From contig LXQI01000011.1 of NCBI GenBank assembly GCA_001683845.1, positions 13,790 through 77,789 of the forward strand: a stretch of 64,000 nucleotides of DNA, written 5' to 3'. Below the pieces are notes generated by a model. The model did not search any database, was not told the DNA's origin, and was given only the letters and a program-made list of their open reading frames with translations. This DNA comes from Erythrobacter sp. ANT-B3C2. Lineage in GTDB: Bacteria; Pseudomonadota; Alphaproteobacteria; Sphingomonadales; Sphingomonadaceae. Shown one piece after another: positions 833-53,438 of this stretch (positions within the stretch are counted from its first letter, which is position 1; each line of letters opens with the position of its first letter). Position numbers and translations under genes: made by a program.

Positions 833-1976
833 GGGAGCGCGCGCGCTGCCTGCCATTCTCGATCGGTACCGGGCGCTCGTCGCCGCGGGTGAGCTGCGCC
901 CCGATCCAGAGCAGGCCGCCGCGGTCACGCGCCTCGCCCGCCTCCAGCGCGATCTCGAACAGGCCAGGCCCCGGCCCGGCCTCCTCGGCCGCCTGTTCGG
1001 CAATCGCGCACGGCGACCCCGCGGGGTCTATCTGTGGGGCGGCGTCGGGCGCGGCAAATCGATGCTGATGGACCTGTTCCACGCCACCCTCGCCATCGAG
1101 GACAAGCGCCGGGTCCACTTTCACGCCTTCATGCAGGAGGTCCACCAGCGCCTGCACGCAGCCCGCCGCAGCGAGACGGGCGACCCCATCCCGCCCGTCG
1201 CCGCCGCCATCGCTGCGAAATTGCGCTGCCTCTCGTTCGACGAGATGGTGGTCAACAATTCGGCCGATGCGATGATCATGAGCCGGCTGTTCCGCGCGCT
1301 CGTCTGCGAGGAGGGCGTGGCCATCGTCACCACCTCCAACCGCCCGCCTGGCGCCCTGTACAAGGACGGGCTGAACCGCGAGCATTTTCTCCCCTTCATC
1401 GAGCTGATCCATCAAGAGCTGGACGTGCTGTCACTCAACGGCCCCACCGATTACCGGCTCGACCGCATCGGTGGGATCAACCGCTGGCTCACGCCCATGG
1501 GTCCCGAGGCCACCGCCCGCCTCAGCGAGGCGTTCTTCCGCCTAACCGATTATGCAGTGGAGGATAGGGCGAACGTCCCCTCCACCGAGCTGGACCTCTC
1601 AAGCGGAGGCGGCGGCGGGCGCACATTGTTCGTGCCAAAGGCGCTGAAGGGCGTGGCCGTGTTCAGCTTCAAGCGGCTGTGCGGCGAGGCGCGCGGCGCC
1701 GCCGATTACCTCGCGGTCGCCCGCGAGTTCCATACAGTGATCCTTGTCGGCATCCCGGTAATGGGGCCGGACATGCGCAACGAGGCCTCCCGCTTCGTGA
1801 CGCTGATCGATGCACTGTACGAACACCGGGTGAAGCTGTTCGCCGCCGCCGCCGCCCAGCCGGAAGACCTCTACACCGGCGGGGACGGCCATTTCGAATT
1901 CGCCCGCACCGTCAGCCGGCTGCACGAAATGCAGAGCGATGCCTACATGGCGCTGGGCCACGGCACGGCGGATTGA
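792..1976 (+). CDS. zapE: AFG1/ZapE-family ATPase (cell division factor ZapE)
   Basis: Walker [18 protein letters not shown] and an N-terminus [16 protein letters not shown] typical of ZapE. The start is uncertain. The track start is a TTG at 792 that overlaps sdhB by 41 nt. A CTG at 846, 8 nt after AAGGGAG, is an alternative. Confidence 0.85.
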
Positions 1977-1992
1977 AGGCGCTGACCCGCGC

Positions 1993-3195
1993 TCACACCA
2001 GCAATTCGCGCGCCGGCCCCTGCCCGAGAAATGCCGCCGGGCTGGCGCTGGCCCCGTAGGCCCCGGTGCAGAACACCGCCACCAGATCGCCCACCCCGGC
2101 CCGGGGGAGCAGCGCCTGCTCGGCCACCCGGTCGAGCGGCGTGCACAGGCAGCCGACCACGCTCGCCACCTCCTCGGGCTCGCTCGAAAACCGGGTGGCA
2201 ATCGCCACCGGATAGTTACGCCGCACCACCGTGCCGAAATTGCCGCTCGCGGCGAGCACGTGGTGCAACCCGCCATCGGTGACGAGGAAGGTGGCGCCAT
2301 GGCTCTCCTTCCGGTCGAGCACCCGCGTCAGGTAGACCCCCGCCTCCCCCACCAGATAGCGGCCGAGTTCGAGCACCAGCGTCGTTTGCGCCAGCTCCGG
2401 CGGCAACGCGGCGATCCGCTCGCCCAGCGCCCCGCCCACCATCGCCAGGTCGAGCGGCCGGTCGCCCGCGAAATAAGGAATGCCGAAGCCCCCACCCATG
2501 TTTAAATGCGGCAGCGGATGGCCGATCTCCCCCGTAAGCCGCGCGGCAAGCTCCAGCACCCGGCCCTGCATCTCGACGATCGCTTCGGCATCCAGCGCTT
2601 GGCTACCGGCGAACACATGCAGCCCGCGCCACTCGGCCCCCGCCCCGATCACCTCCCGCGCCAGCGCCGGCACCAGCGCCTCGCCCACCCCGAACGGCTT
2701 GGCGCCCCCGCCCATCTTCATGCCCGATCCGCGCAGCTCGAAGCTGGGGTTTACCCGGATTGCAAGACGCGGCTGCACGCCAACCTGATCGGCAATGGCC
2801 AACGCCCGCCGCGCCTCGCCCGCCGATTCGAGGTTCAGCGTCACCCCAGCAACGATCGCAGCCTCCAGCTCCGCATCGCGCTTGCCCGGGCCGGCAAAGC
2901 TCAACGCCTGCGCCCGCTGACCCGAGGCCAGCGCCCGCTCCAACTCGCCGCCCGAGGCGATATCGAACCCGTCCACCAGCCCGCGCATCAGCGCCAGCAG
3001 CGGCGGAAACGGGTTGGCCTTTACCGCATAATGCAACCGCACCCGCTCATGCAGGCAGGCGCGCAAATGCGCCACCCGATCGGCGATCATCGCGCCCGAA
3101 TAGACGAACAGCGGCGTCCCGCCCGCCTCCTCTACCAGCGCGCTCGCCTTCCGGCCGCCGATCGCCAGCTCTCCATCCAGCGCTACAAAGCCCAT
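1993..3195 (-). CDS. PLP-dependent decarboxylase, Orn/DAP/Arg decarboxylase fold; resembles the exosortase-A-system-associated family (TIGR03099-like)
   Basis: 400 aa from the ATG read at 3195 (MGFVALDGE...). Motifs are HYAVKANP (PLP lysine), MGGGFGIPY and GCLCTPLD. Track ORF 1993..4200 over-extends into the next gene. It sits 20 nt downstream of the acyl-CoA ligase on the same strand. Confidence 0.8.
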   Translation of the reverse strand: MGFVALDGELAIGGRKASALVEEAGGTPLFVYSGAMIADRVAHLRACLHERVRLHYAVKANPFPPLLALMRGLVDGFDIASGGELERALASGQRAQALSFAGPGKRDAELEAAIVAGVTLNLESAGEARRALAIADQVGVQPRLAIRVNPSFELRGSGMKMGGGAKPFGVGEALVPALAREVIGAGAEWRGLHVFAGSQALDAEAIVEMQGRVLELAARLTGEIGHPLPHLNMGGGFGIPYFAGDRPLDLAMVGGALGERIAALPPELAQTTLVLELGRYLVGEAGVYLTRVLDRKESHGATFLVTDGGLHHVLAASGNFGTVVRRNYPVAIATRFSSEPEEVASVVGCLCTPLDRVAEQALLPRAGVGDLVAVFCTGAYGASASPAAFLGQGPARELLV

Positions 3196-3215
3196 GGGGA
3201 TCGGGCCGAGCGGCT

Positions 3216-4748
3216 TCACGCGCCCGTCGCCTCGCGCAGGAGGGCGGCCCGGTCGAGCTTGCCGTTCGGTCCCAGCGGCATCGCCTCCACCCAGCGGATC
3301 GCCTGCGGTTGCATGAAGCCCGGCAGCTCCCGCTTCAGCGCCGCCCTCAGCGCCTCTTCCCCGGAGGGGGAGCCCCGCACCACCAGCCACACCGCCTGCC
3401 CCAGCCGCGCATCGGGCACCCCCAGGGCCGCCGCCTCCGCCACGCCCCCGCTGGCAATCGCCGCCTCCTCGACCTCCTGCGGGCTGATCCGGTTGCCCGA
3501 ACTCTTGATCATCGCATCGTCCCGCCCGATGAAGTGCAGCAGCCCCGTCGTATCGCGCACCACCCGGTCGCCCGACCACACCGCCATGCCACCATAGCGC
3601 GATTGCGGCGGCGCGGGCCGAAAGCGCTCGGCGGTGCGTACGGCATCGCCCCAGTAGCCCTGCGCCACCAGCGGCCCGCAATGCACCAGCTCGCCCTCCT
3701 CGCCCGCGCCTGCCAGCGTTTCGACATCGCGCATCCCCAGCACCTCGGCAAAGGGGATCGCCCGCCCGATCGAGGTGGGGTGCGCATCGACCAGCGCCGG
3801 ATCGAGGTAAGTCGAGCGGAACGCCTCCGTGAGGCCGTACATCGAAAACAGCGCTGCTTGCGGGAAGCTTGCGCGCAGGGTTCGCACCAATTGCTCCCCC
3901 ATTGCACCCCCGCTGTTCGTCAGGCGCAACAGCGATGCAACGGCCTCTTGCGGCCAGTCTTGCTCCACCAGCTGCACCAATAACGGCGGCACCGCAGCCA
4001 GCGTGGTCACCCGGTGCCGCGCACAGGTTTTGACCACATCGCGCGGCGTGAGATAGTCGAGCGGCACCACGCTCGCCCCTGCCGCCCAGGCGCTCAGCAG
4101 CTGGTTCTGTCCATAATCGAACGCCAGCGGCAACACCGCCAACACCACGTCGCTTGGCCGCAAGGCCAGGTAATGGGCGACGCTCACCGCACCGAGCCAC
4201 AGATTGGCATGGCTCAACATCACCCCCTTCGGCCGCCCGGTGGAGCCGCTTGTGTAGAGCAGCGCGGCAAGATCATCGGGCGCGGCGCGCGACGGTTCAA
4301 GCTCTATGCCGAGTGAGGAAGCCGATCCAAGTGCTTCAATCTCGGAGAACTTTCTGCACCCCGCTGGCACATCCGCTAGCTCAAGCGTGCCGAGACGCGC
4401 CCCCGTCCCCAGCAGCAGCGCTGCACCGCTATCGGCGAGAACATGCGCCACCTGCGCGCGCTTCAGCAGCGGGTTAATCGGCACGTGCACCAGCCCCGCA
4501 CGCGGCGCGGCGAGCGGCAGCAGACAGGTGAGCTCGCCCTTGGCCGCCCAGCTCGCCACCCGCGCGCCCTCGGCCAGGTCCAGGCTGCGCAGCCAGCCCG
4601 CCAGCAACGCCACGCGGCGGCGCACCTCCGTCCGGGGCAGCGTGCCGTCGCGCAGCACCAGCGCCGGCGAGGCATCGTAGCCTCCCTCGACCAGATGGTC
4701 GAGCGGGCGCGACACAGGGTCCGGCTCGCCGGGGTTCGGGCGGATCAT
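3216..4748 (-). CDS. AMP-forming acyl-CoA ligase / acyl-ACP synthetase-like adenylating enzyme; resembles the exosortase-A-associated family (TIGR03098-like)
   Basis: 510 aa from the ATG at 4748 (MIRPNPGE...). AMP-binding core LLYTSGSTGRPKGVMLSH; C-terminal SGDRVVRDTTGLLHFIGRDDAMIKSSGNRISPQEVE. It is paired with the PLP decarboxylase and a divergent ACP. Confidence 0.8.
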   Translation of the reverse strand: MIRPNPGEPDPVSRPLDHLVEGGYDASPALVLRDGTLPRTEVRRRVALLAGWLRSLDLAEGARVASWAAKGELTCLLPLAAPRAGLVHVPINPLLKRAQVAHVLADSGAALLLGTGARLGTLELADVPAGCRKFSEIEALGSASSLGIELEPSRAAPDDLAALLYTSGSTGRPKGVMLSHANLWLGAVSVAHYLALRPSDVVLAVLPLAFDYGQNQLLSAWAAGASVVPLDYLTPRDVVKTCARHRVTTLAAVPPLLVQLVEQDWPQEAVASLLRLTNSGGAMGEQLVRTLRASFPQAALFSMYGLTEAFRSTYLDPALVDAHPTSIGRAIPFAEVLGMRDVETLAGAGEEGELVHCGPLVAQGYWGDAVRTAERFRPAPPQSRYGGMAVWSGDRVVRDTTGLLHFIGRDDAMIKSSGNRISPQEVEEAAIASGGVAEAAALGVPDARLGQAVWLVVRGSPSGEEALRAALKRELPGFMQPQAIRWVEAMPLGPNGKLDRAALLREATGA

Positions 4749-4831
4749 GCAGGCCCTATCGGTACGCGCGGCGCCATGCGCAAGAGAGGTCGCTTGTCTC
4801 GCCGCCTGCCGCTGGCTAGGGCCGTGCGCCC

Positions 4832-5134
4832 ATGAACCCGACTGCACCCAGCGCCCCAACGGGCACAGCCGCAACCGATCGCATTCTGCGCGAGGTGCTG
4901 TCCGAGGTGCTCGGCCTCGCGCCCGATCGGGTCGACGGCTTCGAACTTGATACCGGCCTTTTCGGTTACTTGCCCGAACTCGATTCGATGGCTGTCGCAG
5001 GCCTCCTCACCGGAATCGAGGACCGGCTCGGCGTCGTCATCGAGGATGACGAGGTCGATGGCGATATGCTGGAGACCTACGGCGCGTTGCTCGCCTTCGT
5101 CGCTGCCAAGCGCCCGGAGCCGCACGAGGCCTGA
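4832..5134 (+). CDS. acyl carrier protein-like (phosphopantetheine attachment LDSM motif)
   Basis: 100 aa, acidic, with a four-helix ACP layout and a candidate Ppant serine in LPELDSMAVAGLL. It is transcribed divergently from the acyl-CoA ligase across an 83-bp spacer. Confidence 0.75.
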   Translation: MNPTAPSAPTGTAATDRILREVLSEVLGLAPDRVDGFELDTGLFGYLPELDSMAVAGLLTGIEDRLGVVIEDDEVDGDMLETYGALLAFVAAKRPEPHEA

Positions 5135-5136
5135 GC

Positions 5137-6351
5137 TCACCGCACGAACAGGCTGGCTACCTCCACGTGAGTCGACCAGCGGAACTGGCCCACCGGGCGT
5201 AACTCGGCAAGCGTGTAGCCCGCCTCGGCCAGCACCCGAGCGTCGCGTGCCCAGCTTGCCGGGTTGCAGCTGACATAGGCGATGCGCGGCACCTCGCTCC
5301 CGGCGAGCTGCGCCACCTGCTCGCGCGCACCGGCCCGCGGCGGATCGAGCAGCACGCCATCGAGGCCGCGCAATTCCTCCACGCGCATTGGGCTGCGGAA
5401 CAGGTCGCGGTGCACCGCCTCCACCGGCAGGCGATAGCGGCGGCCGGCGGCGCGGCAGGCGAGATGCGCCTCGCGCGCGGCCTCCACTGCCAGCACGCGC
5501 CCACCCTGTCCCTCTGTTCCGGCCAGCGCGAAAGCAAAGGTGCCCAGCCCGGCGAACAGATCGGCCACGGCGCTGCATCGGCCCAGCCAGTCGCGCGCTG
5601 CGGTGGCGAGCGCCGCCTCACCATCGGCGGTCGCCTGCAGGAAAGTCCCGGGCGGATAGTCGACCGATACGCCCGCCAGCATGGCGGTGACCGGCTCGGG
5701 CTCCCACAGCGGCTCGGGGCCGTAGCCCTGGTCCAGCGTGAAGCGGGCGAGCCGCTGGTCACGACAGAAATCGAGCAGCGCCTCTGTCTGTTCGAGGCCT
5801 TCGACGGAGATGCCCTTGAGGGCACAGTCAACCCCCTGATCGGTGAGCGCCAGCGTGATGTCCGCCGCCCAGCGGCCCCGGCGGGGCGTCAGCAGGCGGC
5901 GCAGCGGCTCGATGAGCGCGAACAGCTCGGGGGCGAGCACATGGCATTCGCGCATGTCGACGATCCGGTGCGAACCCGCCTCGCGAAAGCCGATCATCGG
6001 GCGCCCGCCACCGCCGCTCACGTGCAGCGTGGTCCGGCGGCGCGTGCACGGCGGCGAGAGGTGAACCGGCGCCACCATTTGCGCCGCGAGGCCCTGCCCC
6101 TCCGCCGCCAGCACCACGCGGTCGCGCACAAAATCGGCCAGTGCCGCTTCGCTGAGATGCTGCAGCTGGCATCCGCCGCAGCGGCCGTAATGGCGGCAGG
6201 GCGGCTCAGCGCGGTGCGGCCCCGGTTCGAGCGTGCCATCGTCCAGCAGCAGGTCACCCGGAGCGGCGAGCGGCACGTGCCGGCCGCTGGCGGTGACCCC
6301 GTCGCCCTTGGCGGCAACGCGGAGGATCGGCTCGCCCGCGCTCACAGGCAT
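5137..6351 (-). CDS. class I SAM-dependent RNA (uracil-5-)-methyltransferase, RumA/RlmD/TrmA family
   Basis: Fe-S cysteine cluster CRHYGRCGGCQLQH, SAM motif DLFAGLGTF, and catalytic region YVSCNPASWARD. The ATG at 6351 was read from the sequence and overlaps the nnr stop by 10 nt. Confidence 0.85.
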   Translation of the reverse strand: MPVSAGEPILRVAAKGDGVTASGRHVPLAAPGDLLLDDGTLEPGPHRAEPPCRHYGRCGGCQLQHLSEAALADFVRDRVVLAAEGQGLAAQMVAPVHLSPPCTRRRTTLHVSGGGGRPMIGFREAGSHRIVDMRECHVLAPELFALIEPLRRLLTPRRGRWAADITLALTDQGVDCALKGISVEGLEQTEALLDFCRDQRLARFTLDQGYGPEPLWEPEPVTAMLAGVSVDYPPGTFLQATADGEAALATAARDWLGRCSAVADLFAGLGTFAFALAGTEGQGGRVLAVEAAREAHLACRAAGRRYRLPVEAVHRDLFRSPMRVEELRGLDGVLLDPPRAGAREQVAQLAGSEVPRIAYVSCNPASWARDARVLAEAGYTLAELRPVGQFRWSTHVEVASLFVR

Positions 6352-7730: not shown

Positions 7731-7774
7731 GGGCTTGCCTTGCCGCTCTTGTCACAACATACGGCGCCAAGGGC

Positions 7775-9496
7775 TCAGATGTCGGCATAGACATGTGTTT
7801 CGGCCGCGGCGCCCGGGTGGGTGACTGCGCCGCTTACCGCCGGGCCGACATTCTGGGCGTAGCGCCACAGGGCGCCGGCCTGGTAGTCGTTCGAGCGGGG
7901 TCTCCAGGCGGTGCGGCGCTGTTCCAGCACAGCTTCTTCGACCAGCAGGTCGATGGTTCCGGCCGCAGCGTCGATGGCGATTGCATCGCGGTCTTCGACC
8001 AGTGCAATGGGGCCGCAATCGGCTGCTTCGGGCCCCACATGGCCGATGCAAAAGCCCCGCGTGGCACCCGAAAAACGGCCGTCGGTGATCAGCGCTACGC
8101 TTTCGCCCATGCCCTGCCCATAGAGCGCGGCGGTGGTGGAGAGCATCTCGCGCATGCCTGGGCCGCCCTTGGGCCCTTCATAGCGGATCACGATCACGCA
8201 ACCTTCGGCGATGGTGCGCGCCTCGACGGCGGCGAAGGCGTCTTCCTCGCAGTCGAACACGCGCGCCGGACCGGTGAATCGCAGCCGGTGCATTCCGGCA
8301 ACCTTGACGATGGCGCCCTCGGGAGCGAGCGAACCGCGCAGGCCGACCACTCCGCCGGTGGGGCTGAGCGGATTGGCGACGGAGTAGATCACCTTCTGGT
8401 CAGGGTTCCAGGTGACCTCCTCGATATTCTCGCCCAAGGTGCGGCCGGTGACGGTGAGCGGTTCGGGATCGAGGAATCCGCCATCGAGCAACGTCTTCAT
8501 TACCATGTAGACCCCGCCCGCCTCGTGCATGTCCTTGGCGACATATTGCCCGCCGGGCTGGAGATCGGCGATGTAGGGGGTGGATTTGAACACCTCGGCC
8601 ACGTCGAACAGGTCGAACGCGATGCCGCATTCGTGTGCCATAGCGGGCAGGTGCAGCGCTGCGTTGGTGGAGCCGCCGGTGGCCGCGACGACGCGGGCGG
8701 CGTTCTCGAAAGCCGCACGGGTGCAGATGTCGCGGGGGCGCAAGTCACGCTCCAGCAGTGCCATGACCTGCCGTCCGGCGGCCAGAGCGATCTCTTCGCG
8801 ACTTGTGTAAGGAGCGGGGACCATATTGCTGTTGGGCAATGATAATCCGATCGCCTCGCCCACGCAGGCCATGGTGTTGGCGGTGAACTGGCCCCCGCAG
8901 GCACCGTGGCCGGGGCAGGCGACCTTTTCCAGTGCGATCAGCTCCTGCAACGGGCAATTGCCCGCGGCATAGCGGCCGACCGCCTCGAACACGTCCTTTA
9001 CATTGACATCGCGGCCGTTGAACGAGCCCGGCAGGATCGAGCCGCCGTAGACGAAGATCGAGGGAACGTTCAGGCGGAGCATGGCCATCATCATGCCGGG
9101 CAGGCTCTTGTCGCAACCGGCGAAGCCCACCAGCGCATCGTAGCAATGGCCGCGCACCGAGAGCTCGATAGAATCGGCAATCACCTCGCGGCTTACGAGC
9201 GAACTTTTCATGCCCTGGTGGCCCATGGCGATGCCGTCTGTCACGGTGATGGTGTTGAAGCGACGGGGCGTGCCGCCGCCTTCCTCCACGCCGCGGCGGC
9301 AGATATCGGCCTGCGGATCGAGTGCGATATTGCAAGGCGCACTGTCGTTTCCGGCCGAGGCGATGGCCACGAAGGGGCGGGCGATCTGCTCCTCCGTCAT
9401 GCCCATCGCGTAGTAATAGGAGCGGTGCGGCGCGCGCTCAGGGCCGACTGAAACGTGGCGGCTGGGCAGGCGCGACTTGTCGAATGGGGAGGTCAT
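7775..9496 (-). CDS. ilvD: dihydroxy-acid dehydratase
   Basis: 573 aa from the ATG at 9496 ([15 protein letters not shown]...). IlvD/Edd signatures [12 protein letters not shown] and [14 protein letters not shown]. Confidence 0.95.
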
Positions 9497-10275
9497 GGGC
9501 GGCTTTCGCGAAAGGATCGTGCGGTGTCCTGCCCCTCCCGCAGAGCCAGTGCAACACCGTTGGCGACCTCTGCCACCAGTGCGGCCCAGTGCGCCTGCCC
9601 CTCCGCATCGGCGATGAGGTCCTGCCGGATTTCGATCGCGCAATAGGGGCGGCCGTGTGCCTCGGCATGGCGGTTCATCGTGGCGTTCAGCTGGCGGCCG
9701 GAATAGGGCTGGTTGTCGCCCACGGTGAGGCCGTGCTGTTCGAACAGGCGAATGGCGTGGCGTGCGGCGGAACCGTCTCGGTTATAGAGCAGGCCGACGT
9801 GCCAGGGGCGTTCCTCCGAGCGGCTTTGAAGCGCGGGCGTGAAGCTGTGGACCGCGAGGATCAGTGCGGGGTTTGCTGCGTCCAGCCAGTGTGCGAGCCC
9901 ATCGTGATAGGGGCGGTGGAAGGCGATAAGGCGCGCCTCACGGTCGGCGCCGACGTTGCCGGGGATGGGGTACCCGTCGCTGATTTCGGGGATCAGGCCG
10001 GGCGAATCCTCCTCGCGGTGGAGGTCGATGACGAGGCGGCTGACGCAGGCGAGATGCGCTGGGATGGCATGATCGTCAGCGAGGCGCTCGCAGACGCCGG
10101 CGGTGCCGATGTCCCACGCGATGTGTTCGGCCAGCAATTCGGGCGCGATGTCCAGGCCGATCCAGGAGGGCACGCGGTTGGAGGCATGATCGCACACCGC
10201 GACGATGCCGCCCGGGCTGGGCGTGCCGAGTTGGCAGAAGATTGCGCTCACCGGAGCTTGCCCTGCATCTGCCAC
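9493..10275 (-). CDS. N-formylglutamate amidohydrolase family protein
   Basis: FGase-family layout ([38 protein letters not shown]). Its stop overlaps the ilvD ATG (ATGA). The start is GTG at 10275, or GTG at 10251, which overlaps the ispE stop as GTGA. Confidence 0.8.
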
Positions 10276-47369: not shown

Positions 47370-48308
47370 CTAGACCGTGCCGAACTCCTGACTCCGCGCC
47401 GGCTGGCCGCCGGAGCCGCCATCGCGCACCTGCTGGTCGGCCTTGTCAATCAGCTCGTCCTTCTTGTCGAGCGCCTGTTCGGCGACTTGATGGGCGGTAT
47501 CCTTCACCTGATCCCCGACCTGACGCGCCTTGCTTTGCGCCTGGTCGAGGGCCTGTGATCCCATCTTGCCGAACTGCTCCTCCTCGGTGCGGGTAACGGG
47601 CAGGAGGCTGCCGGCCACTGCGCCGACCAGCGCCGCTGCCAGCCCGCCGAGCAGCGGGCTTTCGCGATAGAGGCTGCCAGCCTTCGAGGCCATGCGCGAA
47701 GCACCATCGGACGCGTCTTGCGCCAGATTGCCGGCGCCCTGATAGGCATCGTGCGCCAGATTGCGGGCATATTCGGCGGCATCCTCGCGGCGCTGGCGCA
47801 TGCCGTCAGTCGCTTCATCCAGCCGCTGGCGGAAGCTGGTCTCGTCCTCGTCATGACGCGGCTCGACCATCAGGTAGCTGGCACGTGCATGATCACGCCG
47901 GCGCCGCCAGGCGTCCCAATCCTCCTCGGGGCGGTGCTCGAGCGTGCCCATGTGGCTCGCATAGCCGCGGTGGAAATCATGATCCGGATGAGCGCTGCTG
48001 CCCTTGGAACTGTCATCGCTGCTGCCGAGGAAGCCGGGCTTGAGCGATGAGGCGCGGGCGTCGCTGTCGCTGACCAGCCACAGGCCGCCAATCGCGATCA
48101 TGCCGAGGGCAATCGGATTGCGGCGCGCCTGATCGAGCAGGTAGCGCCCGTCAACGCCATTGGCGTCGCTCTTGTCGAGCAGCGTGTTCATGATGTTGCG
48201 AGGGGTCAACTGCTCCTCGAGCTTGTTGACGGTGTCGCTCATATCCTGCTGGGTCGTACGGATATCGCGCTCGATCTCGGCGGGATTGCGGGTGTCGTTA
48301 GCGTTCAT
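47370..48308 (-). CDS. DUF3618-like membrane stress protein
   Basis: 312 aa. N-terminus NPAEIERDIRTTQQDMSDTVNKLEEQL (DUF3618-like), TM PIALGMIAIGGLWLV, and a second anchor-like segment SPLLGGLAAALVGAVAGSLLP. Confidence 0.7.
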   Translation of the reverse strand: MNANDTRNPAEIERDIRTTQQDMSDTVNKLEEQLTPRNIMNTLLDKSDANGVDGRYLLDQARRNPIALGMIAIGGLWLVSDSDARASSLKPGFLGSSDDSSKGSSAHPDHDFHRGYASHMGTLEHRPEEDWDAWRRRRDHARASYLMVEPRHDEDETSFRQRLDEATDGMRQRREDAAEYARNLAHDAYQGAGNLAQDASDGASRMASKAGSLYRESPLLGGLAAALVGAVAGSLLPVTRTEEEQFGKMGSQALDQAQSKARQVGDQVKDTAHQVAEQALDKKDELIDKADQQVRDGGSGGQPARSQEFGTV

Positions 48309-48759
48309 TGGTGCCTCCGGGGCTCGTCATGTGGCCGGTCACTGCGGCGGGGGTGTCCTCGGCCGTGCGAATTGATCGCTCGGGCTTGAGGTTGGTGGCG
48401 GTCATTTTCTTGGTGGCGCTGGAATACATGATGTAGGCGACGATCGCTGCGATACCGCCCACGATCAGAACGCCAAGGCCATCGTTGTTGAGGGCGATGC
48501 CGAGCCATAGACCGAGGCCCATCAGCGTCACGCCGAGCGCGGCAATGGCAACCACCGCAGCGCTGACCAGTGCGGTAATGGCCTCCTTGAGATCCGTGAT
48601 GGATTCTCGCATCTCGGCCTGGACCAGGCTGACTTGTTCCTGCGCCAGATGCGCGCCCTGCTGGGTCAGGCGGCTGAGCAGATCGCCGAGACCCTCGCTG
48701 GGCTCGGCGGTCTCGGTTCGGACGACCCGCGGCCCTTCATGGAAGGTCTGGTCGTTCAT
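48298..48759 (-). CDS. YqjE-like / 'phage holin family' (holin-X, PF07332-like) two-TM membrane protein
   Basis: 153 aa starting MNDQ, like the 28868 paralogue. Two TM helices. Its ATG overlaps the upstream stop (ATGA). Confidence 0.7.
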   Translation of the reverse strand: MNDQTFHEGPRVVRTETAEPSEGLGDLLSRLTQQGAHLAQEQVSLVQAEMRESITDLKEAITALVSAAVVAIAALGVTLMGLGLWLGIALNNDGLGVLIVGGIAAIVAYIMYSSATKKMTATNLKPERSIRTAEDTPAAVTGHMTSPGGTNER

Positions 48760-49427
48760 CGGCCCGCCCCTCCGGTTTCGCCACTGCCGCCAACTGGTGT
48801 GGATCCAGCCGTCGTAGAGCCGGTCGAGCCTGCGCCGTAGCCGCTCGTGCCCACGCCTCCGGTACCACCATAGCCGCTGCCGGACGTGGAGCCGGCTTCC
48901 CTGGCGTAGCTGGTGCCGCCTGTGCTACCGGATCCGCTCATACCGCTTGATCCGGACTGGCCGCTCAGAGCTATCCGGCTGCCGGGCGCATTCGCACGGT
49001 CCGCATCATAGCGATGGTCGTACTTGTACTCGGCGCCGGCGCGAAAGAACCGCGCGGCGGCGAAGCCCGCCGCAGCCGAGGCGGCAAGGAAGGTCGTGGG
49101 GTGTTGGCGCGCATAGCGCGACAGGTCGCCGGCCAGTTGGTCGGCACTGCGGCCCTCCATGCTGCTTGCGAACTGCTCGATGCTGCTGGCGGTCTGCTTG
49201 AACGCAGCGCTGAGCCATTGCGGAGCATCGCCATCCTGTTCCATTTCCTTCGCCGCACGATCGAGCGCCGAGGCAGTGGACTTAGCCGCCCCGGTCGCCT
49301 GGTCCTTGCGGGTATCGGCTTCCTGCCGCGCGCGATCCGCAGCGGCATCGCCGAGGCGGCTCGCATCCTGCGACAATTCGTTCTTGATCGTCGAGGCGTC
49401 GGTCGCCGAAGTGTCTTGTGGCGTCAT
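48756..49427 (-). CDS. hypothetical DUF883-like membrane protein with Gly/Ser/Thr/Tyr-rich C-terminal tail
   Basis: 223 aa with GAAGGAGAG before the ATG. Helical N-domain, anchor motif YARQHPTTFLAASAAAGFAAARFF, then a low-complexity tail of about 70 aa (SGSSGMSGSGSTGGTSY...GYGGTGGVGTSGYGAGSTGS). Confidence 0.7.
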   Translation of the reverse strand: MTPQDTSATDASTIKNELSQDASRLGDAAADRARQEADTRKDQATGAAKSTASALDRAAKEMEQDGDAPQWLSAAFKQTASSIEQFASSMEGRSADQLAGDLSRYARQHPTTFLAASAAAGFAAARFFRAGAEYKYDHRYDADRANAPGSRIALSGQSGSSGMSGSGSTGGTSYAREAGSTSGSGYGGTGGVGTSGYGAGSTGSTTAGSTPVGGSGETGGAGR

Positions 49428-51651: not shown

Positions 51652-52422
51652 ATGCTGCTGGATTTGAGTAATCCGCCTATGCGCGGAGTGTACGGTCGCG
51701 CCAATCGTTTCGAGCCCTGCAAATCGGTTCTTTACCGGAGAAAAGGCCCTCACGGGGAGTTTACGATCAAGGTTGCCGAGTGTGACGATGATCGAGAGGC
51801 CGCCAAGGCAGTCGTCAATCGTCTTTATGGATGGCGCGGCTACGGCGAACATCACCAATTGGCCGAGCGGGCGAGTTGCACGACCTTCATTGCCTCCTTC
51901 AACAGCGAGGTGGTGGGCACTCTGACGCTCACCGTCGACTCGCCCAAGCGATTGAATGTCGACGAGACCTTTGTTGACGAGCTAATCCACATCCGATCCG
52001 ATCATGAAGCAAGTTTGTGCGAGCTGACGAAGTTCGCGTTCGATCCAACCGTCGGTTCCCAGCCCATGTTGGCCGCACTGTTCCATGTCATCTTCGCTTA
52101 CGGCACACAGATCTATGACTGCACCGATCTTCTGATCGAAGTGAACCCCCGCCACGTGCGTTTCTATGAGACCATGCTGGATTTCTCCCGCTTGGGCCCA
52201 TTGCGCACCAATGCATCCGTCAATGCGCCATCGCAGCTGCTTCAGCTGAGGGTTGCCGAAATCGAGCGGCGGATCGCGCTGTTCGCCGGTCGCGATCATG
52301 GAGGCCGTTCGCTCTACCCGCACTTTCTCGGCAAAGTGGAGGAGCGCGCGGTACGGCGACGGATCGAGAATGCGACCGGCAGGACCAGGCCGAGCCGACC
52401 CGCGATCAGACAGGCGGCTTGA
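51652..52422 (+). CDS. FeeM/NasY-type long-chain N-acyl amino acid synthase-like GNAT-fold protein (PEP-CTERM/exosortase-associated acyltransferase family, TIGR03694-like)
   Basis: 256 aa with AAGGGGGG 8 nt before the ATG. Layout FTIKVAE..REAAKAVVNRLYGWRGY, VGTLTLTVDS, CELTKFAFDP and LLIEVNPRHVRFYETMLDF matches my recollection of this family. G+C is in the mid-50s % in hand-counted stretches. Confidence 0.65.
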   Translation: MLLDLSNPPMRGVYGRANRFEPCKSVLYRRKGPHGEFTIKVAECDDDREAAKAVVNRLYGWRGYGEHHQLAERASCTTFIASFNSEVVGTLTLTVDSPKRLNVDETFVDELIHIRSDHEASLCELTKFAFDPTVGSQPMLAALFHVIFAYGTQIYDCTDLLIEVNPRHVRFYETMLDFSRLGPLRTNASVNAPSQLLQLRVAEIERRIALFAGRDHGGRSLYPHFLGKVEERAVRRRIENATGRTRPSRPAIRQAA

Positions 52423-52503: not shown

Positions 52504-53100
52504 TTAGGCGTAGCTTACCCGCATAGTATCCTGGCGACGGCGGCGCATCACGAAACCGACGGCACCGAAACCGAGAACCATCATCGCCCAAGTGGCAGGC
52601 TCAGGGATTGGGCTCACCGCCGGAGCGAAGGTCAGGTTTCCGCCATAGGAGCCCTGCCCGCGCGACAGATAGGTCACCGATAGGGTGTTCTGAACGTTCA
52701 TCATGATCGGCAAGTTGGCCAGACCGCCACTTTCCATAAACCCGAAGTTCGTCATCGTCGGCACGACAAACGTTCCACTACCGTTGCTGAACGTGACGTT
52801 CAGGAAATCGAGGTCGGTCGCACCACCGGTAAGGCCAGCAAGGATCGTGGTGATCGAACCGCTTCCGAGACCGGTCTGGGGAATGGTGAATAGGAAATTA
52901 TCGGTAAATTCGCCCATGCCGATACCCGCACGACCGAAGGTCGCCGAGATCGGGCCGTCGAAGATGTCATCGCTCTCGACGCTGAAGAAGGCGCCGGGCA
53001 CATTCGTCGGATTGTCGACGAAGATGTTGTTCTGGGCCTGGACTGCCGGGGCAGCGCAGACTGCGGCCGTTGCGGCAATAAGCTTAAGGAGTGATCTCAT
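52504..53100 (-). CDS. FxDxF-family PEP-CTERM (PEPxxWA-CTERM variant) sorting-domain protein
   Basis: 198 aa from the ATG at 53100. Signal peptide MRSLLKLIAATAAVCAAPAVQAQ and FTDNF (FxDxF) motif in GEFTDNFLFTIP. The C-terminus is PIPEPATWAMMVLGFGAVGFVMRRRR, that is PEPxxWA, a TM segment and an Arg cluster. Confidence 0.85.
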   Translation of the reverse strand: MRSLLKLIAATAAVCAAPAVQAQNNIFVDNPTNVPGAFFSVESDDIFDGPISATFGRAGIGMGEFTDNFLFTIPQTGLGSGSITTILAGLTGGATDLDFLNVTFSNGSGTFVVPTMTNFGFMESGGLANLPIMMNVQNTLSVTYLSRGQGSYGGNLTFAPAVSPIPEPATWAMMVLGFGAVGFVMRRRRQDTMRVSYA

Positions 53101-53438
53101 ATGAGTGACCTTCCGAGTCGGGGTTGAACCATCCAGAGGCTGGCTAGGCGATTGCACCTACAACCACAACAAGAAAACAGTAACTACCGTAGCAGCTTAA
53201 AGATGTGTCCCAAACGGGAACAATATCGGAATGGCCGGAACCGCTGGGGCTTCACCGAAGGAAAGCACGCGCCAGCTTCGTTCCCTGCCGGCGCGGAACT
53301 GCGGCAACATTCCGGCTGGTGATGCTGGATATGCGAGATCACACCACAAGCAACACTCCACAGACCGTGGCTTCTGGTATGGAACAAGCCGCGAAGAGCC
53401 TGCACGCTCATACTGGCCCCATGGTAAGCACACGAAAA

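Follow-up and report, generated by a model that had tools for sequence, protein, structure and literature searches.

A set of three genes—encoding an AMP-forming ligase, a pyridoxal phosphate (PLP) decarboxylase, and an acyl carrier protein (ACP)—is embedded among housekeeping genes in a stretch of 64,000 nucleotides from Erythrobacter sp. ANT-B3C2, which is referred to here as the window. On balance, we favor a reading in which this trio is the surviving core of the accessory cassette of an exosortase A (XrtA) system and makes a carrier-bound, decarboxylated amino acid. Rather than a free-standing invention, the trio is what deletions have left of a full XrtA locus, and relatives have this full locus in the same chromosomal slot. 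This origin had been missed by the original prediction, which took the trio for a stand-alone exosortase-associated set within core genes and holds in other parts. The genes as such belong to families already recognized by curated NCBI models. New are the trio as a separable unit—repeatedly retained, and kept under selection, where the remainder of the XrtA locus has been lost—as well as a pattern of co-loss pointing to a second module of hydrolases, a FemAB-like gene, and a small lipoprotein. In addition, a concrete chemical model can be proposed from sequence for genes that bear no reported function in the literature found.

The three genes stand where they had been placed before, and each is recognized by a family model. 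The ligase (510 residues; 3216–4748, minus strand) matches both Pfam AMP-binding and AMP-binding_C and reaches 602.5 bits with TIGR03098 ([quoted passage not shown])—a marginal pass at a cutoff of 592.35, with other members of this family scoring 618–646 bits. The decarboxylase, a BtrK-like enzyme of PLP fold-type III (408 residues; 1993–3219, minus strand), gains 555.4 bits with TIGR03099 at a cutoff of 478.45; here, other members score 578–589 bits. The stand-alone acyl/peptidyl carrier protein (100 residues; 4832–5134, plus strand) is transcribed divergently from the ligase and is found by PF00550 (PP-binding) with 28.1 bits at a cutoff of 20.8, and its best NCBIfam match—the aryl carrier AsbD—is weak. 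Ser52 within its LDSM motif (codon 4985–4987) is the putative phosphopantetheine-attachment serine. The expectation of two exosortase-associated enzyme families and of an ACP with a phosphopantetheine site is borne out by these matches.

On the decarboxylase side, the trio is flanked by the genes of the ZapE/AFG1 ATPase (792–1976) and SdhB (50–832), and on the ACP side by that of a U5-type RNA methyltransferase (5137–6351), beyond which YjeF, IlvD, and N-formylglutamate amidohydrolase (FGase) are encoded. This placement between zapE and the RNA methyltransferase gene, as described originally, is a tight one: 16 bp lie between the stop codons of decarboxylase and zapE, and 2 bp between those of ACP and RNA methyltransferase. 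The window has a G+C content of 67%, and its best protein matches are found in the Erythrobacteraceae (Sphingomonadales), namely in Croceibacterium, Porphyrobacter, and Altererythrobacter. At third codon positions, the G+C content of the trio (0.77–0.86) resembles that of its neighbors (0.81–0.86), in agreement with the earlier statement that the trio shows no compositional anomaly. Across the 64 kb, tblastn and profile hidden Markov models—the latter built from dozens of relatives—found no XrtA, neither hydrolase 1 (TIGR03100) nor hydrolase 2 (TIGR03101), neither of the two FemAB proteins, and none of seven genes of the exopolysaccharide (EPS) block. Neither the trio locus nor any other part of the window encodes XrtA/EpsI or EPS export proteins of the PEP-CTERM type, which extends to 64 kb the original remark that exosortase, hydrolase, and polysaccharide genes are not found nearby. 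A tRNA scan and Rfam gave no tRNA genes and no matches, respectively, in the window.

In most Erythrobacteraceae, the slot between FGase–IlvD–YjeF–RNA methyltransferase and ZapE–SdhB holds a full XrtA locus. This can be appreciated in Altererythrobacter atlanticus, whose decarboxylase orthologue (74% identity) lies in the same slot after FGase–IlvD–YjeF–RNA methyltransferase, and whose ACP is orthologous to that of the window (67% identity). On the acyl-carrier side, this locus encodes hydrolase 1, hydrolase 2, ACP, and a FemAB-like GNAT, divergent from ligase and decarboxylase. The decarboxylase is followed by polysaccharide export, chain-length determinant, ParA-like kinase, outer-membrane protein, and ATPase genes, and these by genes for a deacetylase, FemAB, a glycosyltransferase, and XrtA/EpsI. 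Judged by its model matches, this is a canonical XrtA system: TIGR03100, TIGR03027, TIGR03015, and TIGR03019 are matched above the NCBIfam cutoffs, and a partial XrtA matches TIGR03109. The ancestor of the window locus had the same layout—hydrolase 1–hydrolase 2–ACP–FemAB divergent from ligase–decarboxylase–EPS export/assembly–XrtA/EpsI—and was bordered by zapE and the RNA methyltransferase gene. From it, the EPS/XrtA block, both hydrolases, and the gene for the FemAB-like protein were deleted, and a small lipoprotein gene between ilvD and yjeF disappeared as well.

A first set of loci comprised one genome per GTDB species, anchored on the decarboxylase, and amounted to 81 loci (80 plus A. atlanticus). 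The full arrangement is seen in 59 of these, six are trio-only like the window (L020, L032, L045, L049, L053, and L067)—with the RNA methyltransferase on one side and ZapE–SdhB on the other—and two are true intermediates (L021 and L036); in the remaining loci, contig ends truncate the arrangement. Taken together, relatives show a graded decay of the XrtA locus with intermediates, stubs, and fused fragments. A C-terminal stub of 50–70 residues of the XrtA-associated ATPase stands right after the decarboxylase in L020 (11293–11466), L032 (11361–11522), and L053 (9298–9456), and the gene of this ATPase is whole in L045 and L049. In L036 (11521–15169), residues 3–31 of Poly_export are fused next to residues 394–503 of the outer-membrane protein, and a 46-residue glycosyltransferase stub (GT1 residues 1–46) precedes ZapE. 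A truncated chain-length determinant (GNVR) gene runs straight into ZapE in L149 (15126–17142), and hydrolase 1 is split in L021 (5591–6495).

The reduction from full locus to trio occurred at least four times, and usually five or six times, in the trees calculated here (neighbor-joining, 200 bootstraps, Fitch parsimony for the full/trio-only state). Trees of the flanking genes (FGase, YjeF, and RNA methyltransferase) require five or six changes between both states in every replicate, trees of ligase plus decarboxylase and of all five genes four to six. The window is hereby sister to the full-locus A. atlanticus in 195–198 of 200 replicates. Independent deletions agree with the differing junctions, as the ATPase is kept, stubbed, or gone depending on the lineage.

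Two further observations concern this slot. A gene for a predicted lipoprotein of 117 residues without family match is located between ilvD and yjeF (L002 2803–3156; the corresponding gap in the window is 7731–7774). Of 59 loci with hydrolases, 53 have this gene, whereas none of 16 trio-only loci do; despite a distance of about 2.6 kb to the cassette, this pattern, which tracks the hydrolases, suggests that the lipoprotein gene belongs functionally with the hydrolase/FemAB module. The dihydroxy-acid dehydratase of the slot occurs in two types of about 38% identity, one in the window (7775–9643, minus strand) and one of the A. atlanticus type (L002 944–2803). Both are found among full and trio-only loci, and this looks like an in-place replacement by a paralogue or xenologue.

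In the window, ligase and ACP diverge across 83 bp, as originally described, with the spacer between both starts at 4749–4831. At this place, full loci have the FemAB-like gene of roughly 1 kb; the spacer bears four promoter-like blocks: CCTATC (4755–4760), GCAAG (4780–4784), GCTTGTCTC (4792–4800), and GCTGGCTAGGGC (4811–4822). These blocks recur in the trio-only spacers of several lineages, with diverged sequence between them. On the ACP side, the reverse complement GCCCTAGCCAGC agrees, at 12 of 12 positions, with A. atlanticus FemAB_1 in the region of its stop codon; on the ligase side, CTTGC-N19-GATAG is found, and the same spacing occurs inside codons ~7–17 of FemAB_1 in about 60 full loci. 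The spacer is hence probably what an internal deletion within the FemAB-like gene has left behind. This is only suggestive, since local alignments of both spacer halves to the A. atlanticus FemAB gene do not score above shuffled controls. In an equally suggestive manner, the blocks can be read as retained, putative promoter elements: TTGCGC-N17-GATAGG lies 6 nt before the ATG of the ligase, and facing it, TTGTCT-N16-CTAGGG lies 10 nt before the ATG of the ACP. Both would yield very short leaders, and the blocks are conserved in the clade. A sigma-54-like GG-N10-GC just 5' of the ACP ATG was rejected as too near the start codon. A sigma-70/terminator consensus scan of 1900–5300 gave one chance-level promoter inside the ligase gene—such a consensus being uninformative for a GC-rich alphaproteobacterium—and no terminators.

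A locus caught in decay might carry its last genes without using them. For the trio, this would mean a nonfunctional relic midway through the stepwise loss of the XrtA locus, and the decay within the family with its intermediates fits such a picture. Moreover, the first set of loci was biased toward those retaining the decarboxylase. As a decarboxylase-anchored set cannot show loci without decarboxylase, a second sample of 80 metagenome loci was anchored on the RNA methyltransferase. The hydrolase side is present in 35 of these, 12 are of the trio type, and in a single one (L121) everything—including the trio—is lost; the other loci either do not extend far enough or come from lineages in which the synteny differs. 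In L121 (5411–6227), the RNA methyltransferase and ZapE genes are 817 bp apart, and an unrelated open reading frame of 176 residues lies between them. Trio-only loci thus outnumber complete loss by 12:1 in this sample, and no reduced locus in which all three positions are visible keeps just one or two of the trio genes. In L136, the ligase is found in two fragments. The three reading frames of the window are of full length with intact catalytic residues, and catalytic and pocket residues are conserved among orthologues, nearly all of them invariantly. Trio-only proteins of other lineages score on the TIGR models like full-locus proteins.

The ratio of nonsynonymous to synonymous substitution rates (dN/dS) speaks against a relic as well. 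The closest relatives of the window (four contigs, decarboxylases 81–85% identical) are all trio-only; hence, the trio-only state is older than this clade. Within it (dS about 0.4–1.2), dN/dS amounts to 0.12–0.21 for the decarboxylase, 0.16–0.22 for the ligase, and 0.06–0.32 for the ACP. The flanking genes show 0.08–0.19 (RNA methyltransferase), 0.16–0.21 (YjeF), 0.08–0.29 (ZapE), and 0.17–0.22 (FGase), with 0.05–0.29 overall. As the trio evolves like these housekeeping genes across members of the trio-only clade that are about 0.6–0.8 apart in dS, it is kept by selection, and a nonfunctional relic appears very improbable. Selection on the trio after loss of the rest rather suggests that it has a job of its own. 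The idea that the trio may be autonomous, already raised from the window alone, finds support in the repeated retention of exactly these three genes and in this purifying selection. Trio-only strains can hence be regarded as natural minimal systems, since the trio survives under selection without XrtA, EPS genes, hydrolases, and FemAB-like gene. Named genomes of the trio-only kind are those of Erythrobacter sp. SD-21, Altererythrobacter lutimaris JGD-16, Altererythrobacter sp. MF3-039, and Sphingomonadales bacterium BRH_c3.

Alternatively, the trio might not be autonomous and might serve an XrtA/PEP-CTERM system of which the further components (xrtA, hydrolases, FemAB, and EPS export genes) are encoded at another genomic site, be it after relocation or as a second copy. 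The 64 kb are a part of the genome, and they do encode an intact PEP-CTERM protein of the PEPxxWA/FxDxF type (52504–53103, minus strand; NF038126 with 78 bits and NF035944 with 46.9 bits, both above cutoffs) with a signal peptide and the tail PEPATWAMMVLGFGAVGFVMRRRR. Some exosortase is therefore probably present in the genome. However, this one PEP-CTERM protein of the window is of the PEPxxWA type associated with exosortase V (XrtV). In Tsuneonella amylolytica (L170 10001–11523 and 2648–4250), its orthologue is found in a locus that encodes XrtV (NF035943, 373 bits) together with glycosyltransferases, EpsI type V, and a further PEPxxWA protein, and not in an XrtA locus. XrtV is not found in the 64-kb window, and a regular-expression scan of 87 trio/XrtA loci gave no PEP-CTERM tails. 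Furthermore, relatives show destruction of the XrtA block in place, with truncated genes and stubs instead of a clean excision, the same reduction recurs in several lineages, and no member of the XrtA set is encoded in the 64 kb. We therefore regard service to such an XrtA system as unlikely, if less so than a relic.

The trio was also proposed to feed a FeeM-like synthase 47 kb away, with the ACP-bound product being passed on for an amine-containing lipid. FeeM-type enzymes use acyl-ACP donors, and the trio itself has no linked transferase. A FeeM-family N-acyl amino acid synthase is indeed encoded at 51652–52422 (plus strand; PF21926, 142 bits). This gene is convergent with that of the PEPxxWA protein, and the orthologous pair lies within the XrtV/EpsI-V polysaccharide locus of T. 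amylolytica, which places the pair in an XrtV-type context. No FeeM gene is found near the trio in any locus examined, and the donors of FeeM are long-chain fatty acyl-ACPs rather than aminoacyl-ACPs. [quoted passage not shown] Such a hand-off can hardly be expected, and a product in the form of a lipid head group is not supported. Upstream of this pair in window numbering, genes for a DUF3618 protein (47370–48308, minus strand) and a Phage_holin_3_6 family membrane protein (48298–48759, minus strand) form a tandem, with a further open reading frame beside it (48756–49427).

What the trio might do as the core of an XrtA accessory cassette can be approached from its closest characterized relatives. 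For the ligase, the next-best models are the fatty-acid CoA ligase PRK06187 with 233.7 bits (cutoff 476) and the amino-acid adenylation model TIGR01733 with 233.2 bits. PRK06187 is also the best of the FadD/long-chain-fatty-acid CoA ligase models, all of which remain below cutoff—far behind TIGR03098. The best sequence matches in the PDB are adenylation (A) domains of nonribosomal peptide synthetases (NRPS). VinN (3WV4/3WVN) is the best stand-alone match and also the best one for the pocket segment. The hallmarks of VinN are D230, F231, S299, K330/R331, and a β13–β14 loop that is shorter by one residue (PMC11253843). In the ligase, D211, Y212, S279, F310, and R311 take the positions of VinN D230, F231, S299, K330, and R331. 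The alignment to VinN is gapless through the β13–β14 loop, and the HMMER alignment to the α-amino-acid domain of LgrA requires a two-residue gap. The ligase thus shows the β-amino-acid pocket as laid out in PMC11253843, save for the replacement of K330 by Phe. The amino-group-binding Asp is retained, and all five pocket residues are invariant across 74 orthologues, trio-only or not, with the exception of S279, which is Thr in three. The ligase is predicted to be a stand-alone NRPS-type adenylation enzyme that acts as an aminoacyl-ACP ligase with a VinN-like pocket.

For the decarboxylase, the start codon has to be considered first. The original prediction let the gene begin 20 nt past the ligase stop (ATG 3195). 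The residues before this ATG, (V/M)KPLGPIP, are conserved in orthologues, and the database gene call (P0001) has 408 residues; GTG 3219 is hence the more likely start, and an exact-sequence look-up of the 400-residue ATG-start version returned no record. The GTG overlaps the ligase stop by 4 nt (GTGA), and both genes form a translationally coupled pair with no 20-nt gap between them. The top PDB sequence match of the enzyme is BtrK (7RU7/2J66) with 220 bits, E = 4e-64, and 33% identity, and all other matches (SbnH/LysA-type) reach at most 130 bits, with neither LysA nor any ornithine decarboxylase coming near BtrK. An AlphaFold model (predicted local distance difference test 81, predicted template-modeling score 0.83) leads Foldseek to BtrK on ranks 1 and 2, with SbnH next; template-modeling scores (~0.8 to LysA) do not separate BtrK from LysA. 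Lys67 lies within YAVKAN. At the place of the LysA substrate motif CESGD (as in Thermotoga LysA, 2YXX), which the enzyme does not have, stands C359-T-P-L-D363, to be compared with CTPED in BtrK and CTPKD in SbnH. One orthologue is already named after BtrK in UniRef. As a side observation, the exchange Q321V in the GGLHHQLAAS motif (codon about 2257–2259) is common to the window and the three trio-only loci closest to it, at a position invariant in 59 full-locus sequences. This may be an adaptive or a relaxed change after the loss of partner genes.

Could both enzymes be ordinary metabolic ones—a LysA and a FadD-type fatty acyl-CoA ligase—that the models misname? Many orthologues are annotated as "diaminopimelate decarboxylase" by JGI, and the fold is shared with LysA at the above template-modeling scores. 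Yet the lysA model TIGR01048 gives 233.5 bits and fails its cutoff of 297.9, with TIGR03099 at 555 bits and CTPLD replacing CESGD, and the ligase is nearest to NRPS A domains with the amino-group-binding Asp kept, at scores with FadD models that are far below their cutoffs. A misnaming is therefore next to excluded, and the assignment to the exosortase-associated families stands.

From these relatives, the following chemistry can be proposed for the trio. The ligase would bind an amino-dicarboxylic acid in the "β-amino acid" orientation of VinN, whereby an Asp-type substrate is favored by the VinN-like pocket and a Glu-type substrate is possible in view of BtrK. The side-chain carboxyl would be thioesterified to the phosphopantetheine arm of the ACP. 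Such a loading via the distal carboxyl is expected because a PLP α-decarboxylase needs a free α-amino and a free α-carboxyl group. The BtrK-like enzyme would subsequently remove the free α-carboxyl of the tethered amino acid, giving an ω-aminoacyl-S-ACP of the β-alanyl or γ-aminobutyryl type. The original surmise of an aminoacyl group that is held by the ACP and converted to an amine by decarboxylation fits BtrK and VinN as the closest characterized relatives. Where the locus is full, processing or delivery of this unit for XrtA/EPS would presumably fall to the FemAB-like transferase and both α/β hydrolases. It is speculated, by analogy with the Vin and Btr pathways, that the FemAB-like GNAT and the hydrolases are transfer or protect/deprotect enzymes; searched by sequence against the PDB, neither hydrolase 1 nor the FemAB-like protein of full loci gave a match. 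In the present genome, the unit would have to be taken over by an acceptor or transferase encoded elsewhere, or to be released.

Several points weigh against this proposal. Substrate, activated carboxyl, and step order rest on homology at about 30% identity, and one of the VinN hallmarks, K330, is Phe (F310) in the ligase. The locus shows no visible outlet for the product, since neither a transferase nor a thioesterase is linked to the trio, whose neighbors are housekeeping genes. On the TIGR models, the two enzymes of the window stay below other members (602 vs. 618–646 and 555 vs. 578–589), and they carry four to five substitutions, among them the clade-wide Q321V, at columns that are invariant in 57–59 full-locus sequences, so that drift or a change of function in the window lineage is possible. 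The trees are neighbor-joining trees only, and the search for xrtA and the hydrolases spans 64 kb of the genome. Literature searches found no experimental paper on members of TIGR03098/TIGR03099, and none of relevance on PEPxxWA or on an exosortase combined with any of the three trio functions. The TIGR03098/TIGR03099 genes go unmentioned in Haft 2006 and in a paper on Aquincola flocs.

Going further, the trio might be a self-sufficient generator of ω-aminoacyl-S-ACP (β-alanyl/γ-aminobutyryl type) with an XrtA-independent use, and in full XrtA loci, the amine unit might represent the missing chemical link of exosortase sorting, serving as nucleophile or anchor on the polysaccharide. We put this forward tentatively, and as a whole it is more doubtful than not. 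Possible uses of the amine unit are supply to another exosortase system such as XrtV/PEPxxWA, for which a substrate protein is encoded in the window, the decoration of another envelope component, or the provision of β-alanine. If the product is indeed an amine-bearing unit, it would give a hint at how exosortases anchor their substrates.

Compared with known systems, the trio is closest to the XrtA accessory genes themselves. Both enzymes are orthologues that pass the curated cutoffs, full loci contain an orthologue of the ACP, and the adjacency of ligase and decarboxylase, the divergent ACP, and the chromosomal slot are those of full loci. Unlike these, the trio locus and the 64 kb around it bear no hydrolases, FemAB-like transferase, XrtA/EpsI, or EPS export/assembly genes.

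In vicenistatin biosynthesis, VinN activates 3-methylaspartate or aspartate as a β-amino acid and loads it onto VinL, and the PLP decarboxylase VinO acts on the tethered substrate. VinN–VinL–VinO and related macrolactam starter-unit cassettes hence share with the trio a stand-alone A enzyme, a stand-alone ACP, and a PLP decarboxylase, with VinO being compared by its role. The pocket of VinN is mirrored in the ligase by Asp, a bulky aromatic residue, Ser, Arg, and the shortened β13–β14 loop. On the contrary, a VinM-type second ligase, a VinK acyltransferase, a VinJ peptidase, and a polyketide synthase are missing from the trio locus. The trio further differs in its alphaproteobacterial host and in an ancestral context of exopolysaccharide and exosortase instead of polyketides.

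The closest solved relative of the decarboxylase is BtrK of butirosin biosynthesis, the L-glutamyl-[BtrI ACP] decarboxylase, with which it shares the motifs CTPxD and GG(L/M)HH...AAS...R(R/S)NYP. The corresponding loading enzyme BtrJ is an ATP-grasp ligase and not adenylate-forming, and equivalents of BtrH or BtrG are not encoded in the trio locus. SbnH (staphyloferrin B) and FslC-type decarboxylases provide the next closest structures at ~25% sequence identity. They share the motif CTPKD and decarboxylate an amino acid moiety bound via its side chain (citryl-diaminopropionate, with diaminopropionate as the moiety attacked by SbnH), whereby the substrate is amide-linked to citrate and not bound to a carrier as a thioester. 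DltA–DltC is much more distant—DltA reaches 111 bits with the ligase, has an α-amino-acid pocket, and works without a decarboxylase—and resembles the trio in combining a stand-alone A domain with a small dedicated carrier for the modification of the cell envelope. Mapping the trio onto VinN and BtrK, with SbnH by analogy, gives a concrete prediction: loading of an Asp/Glu-type amino acid via its side chain, followed by decarboxylation on the carrier.

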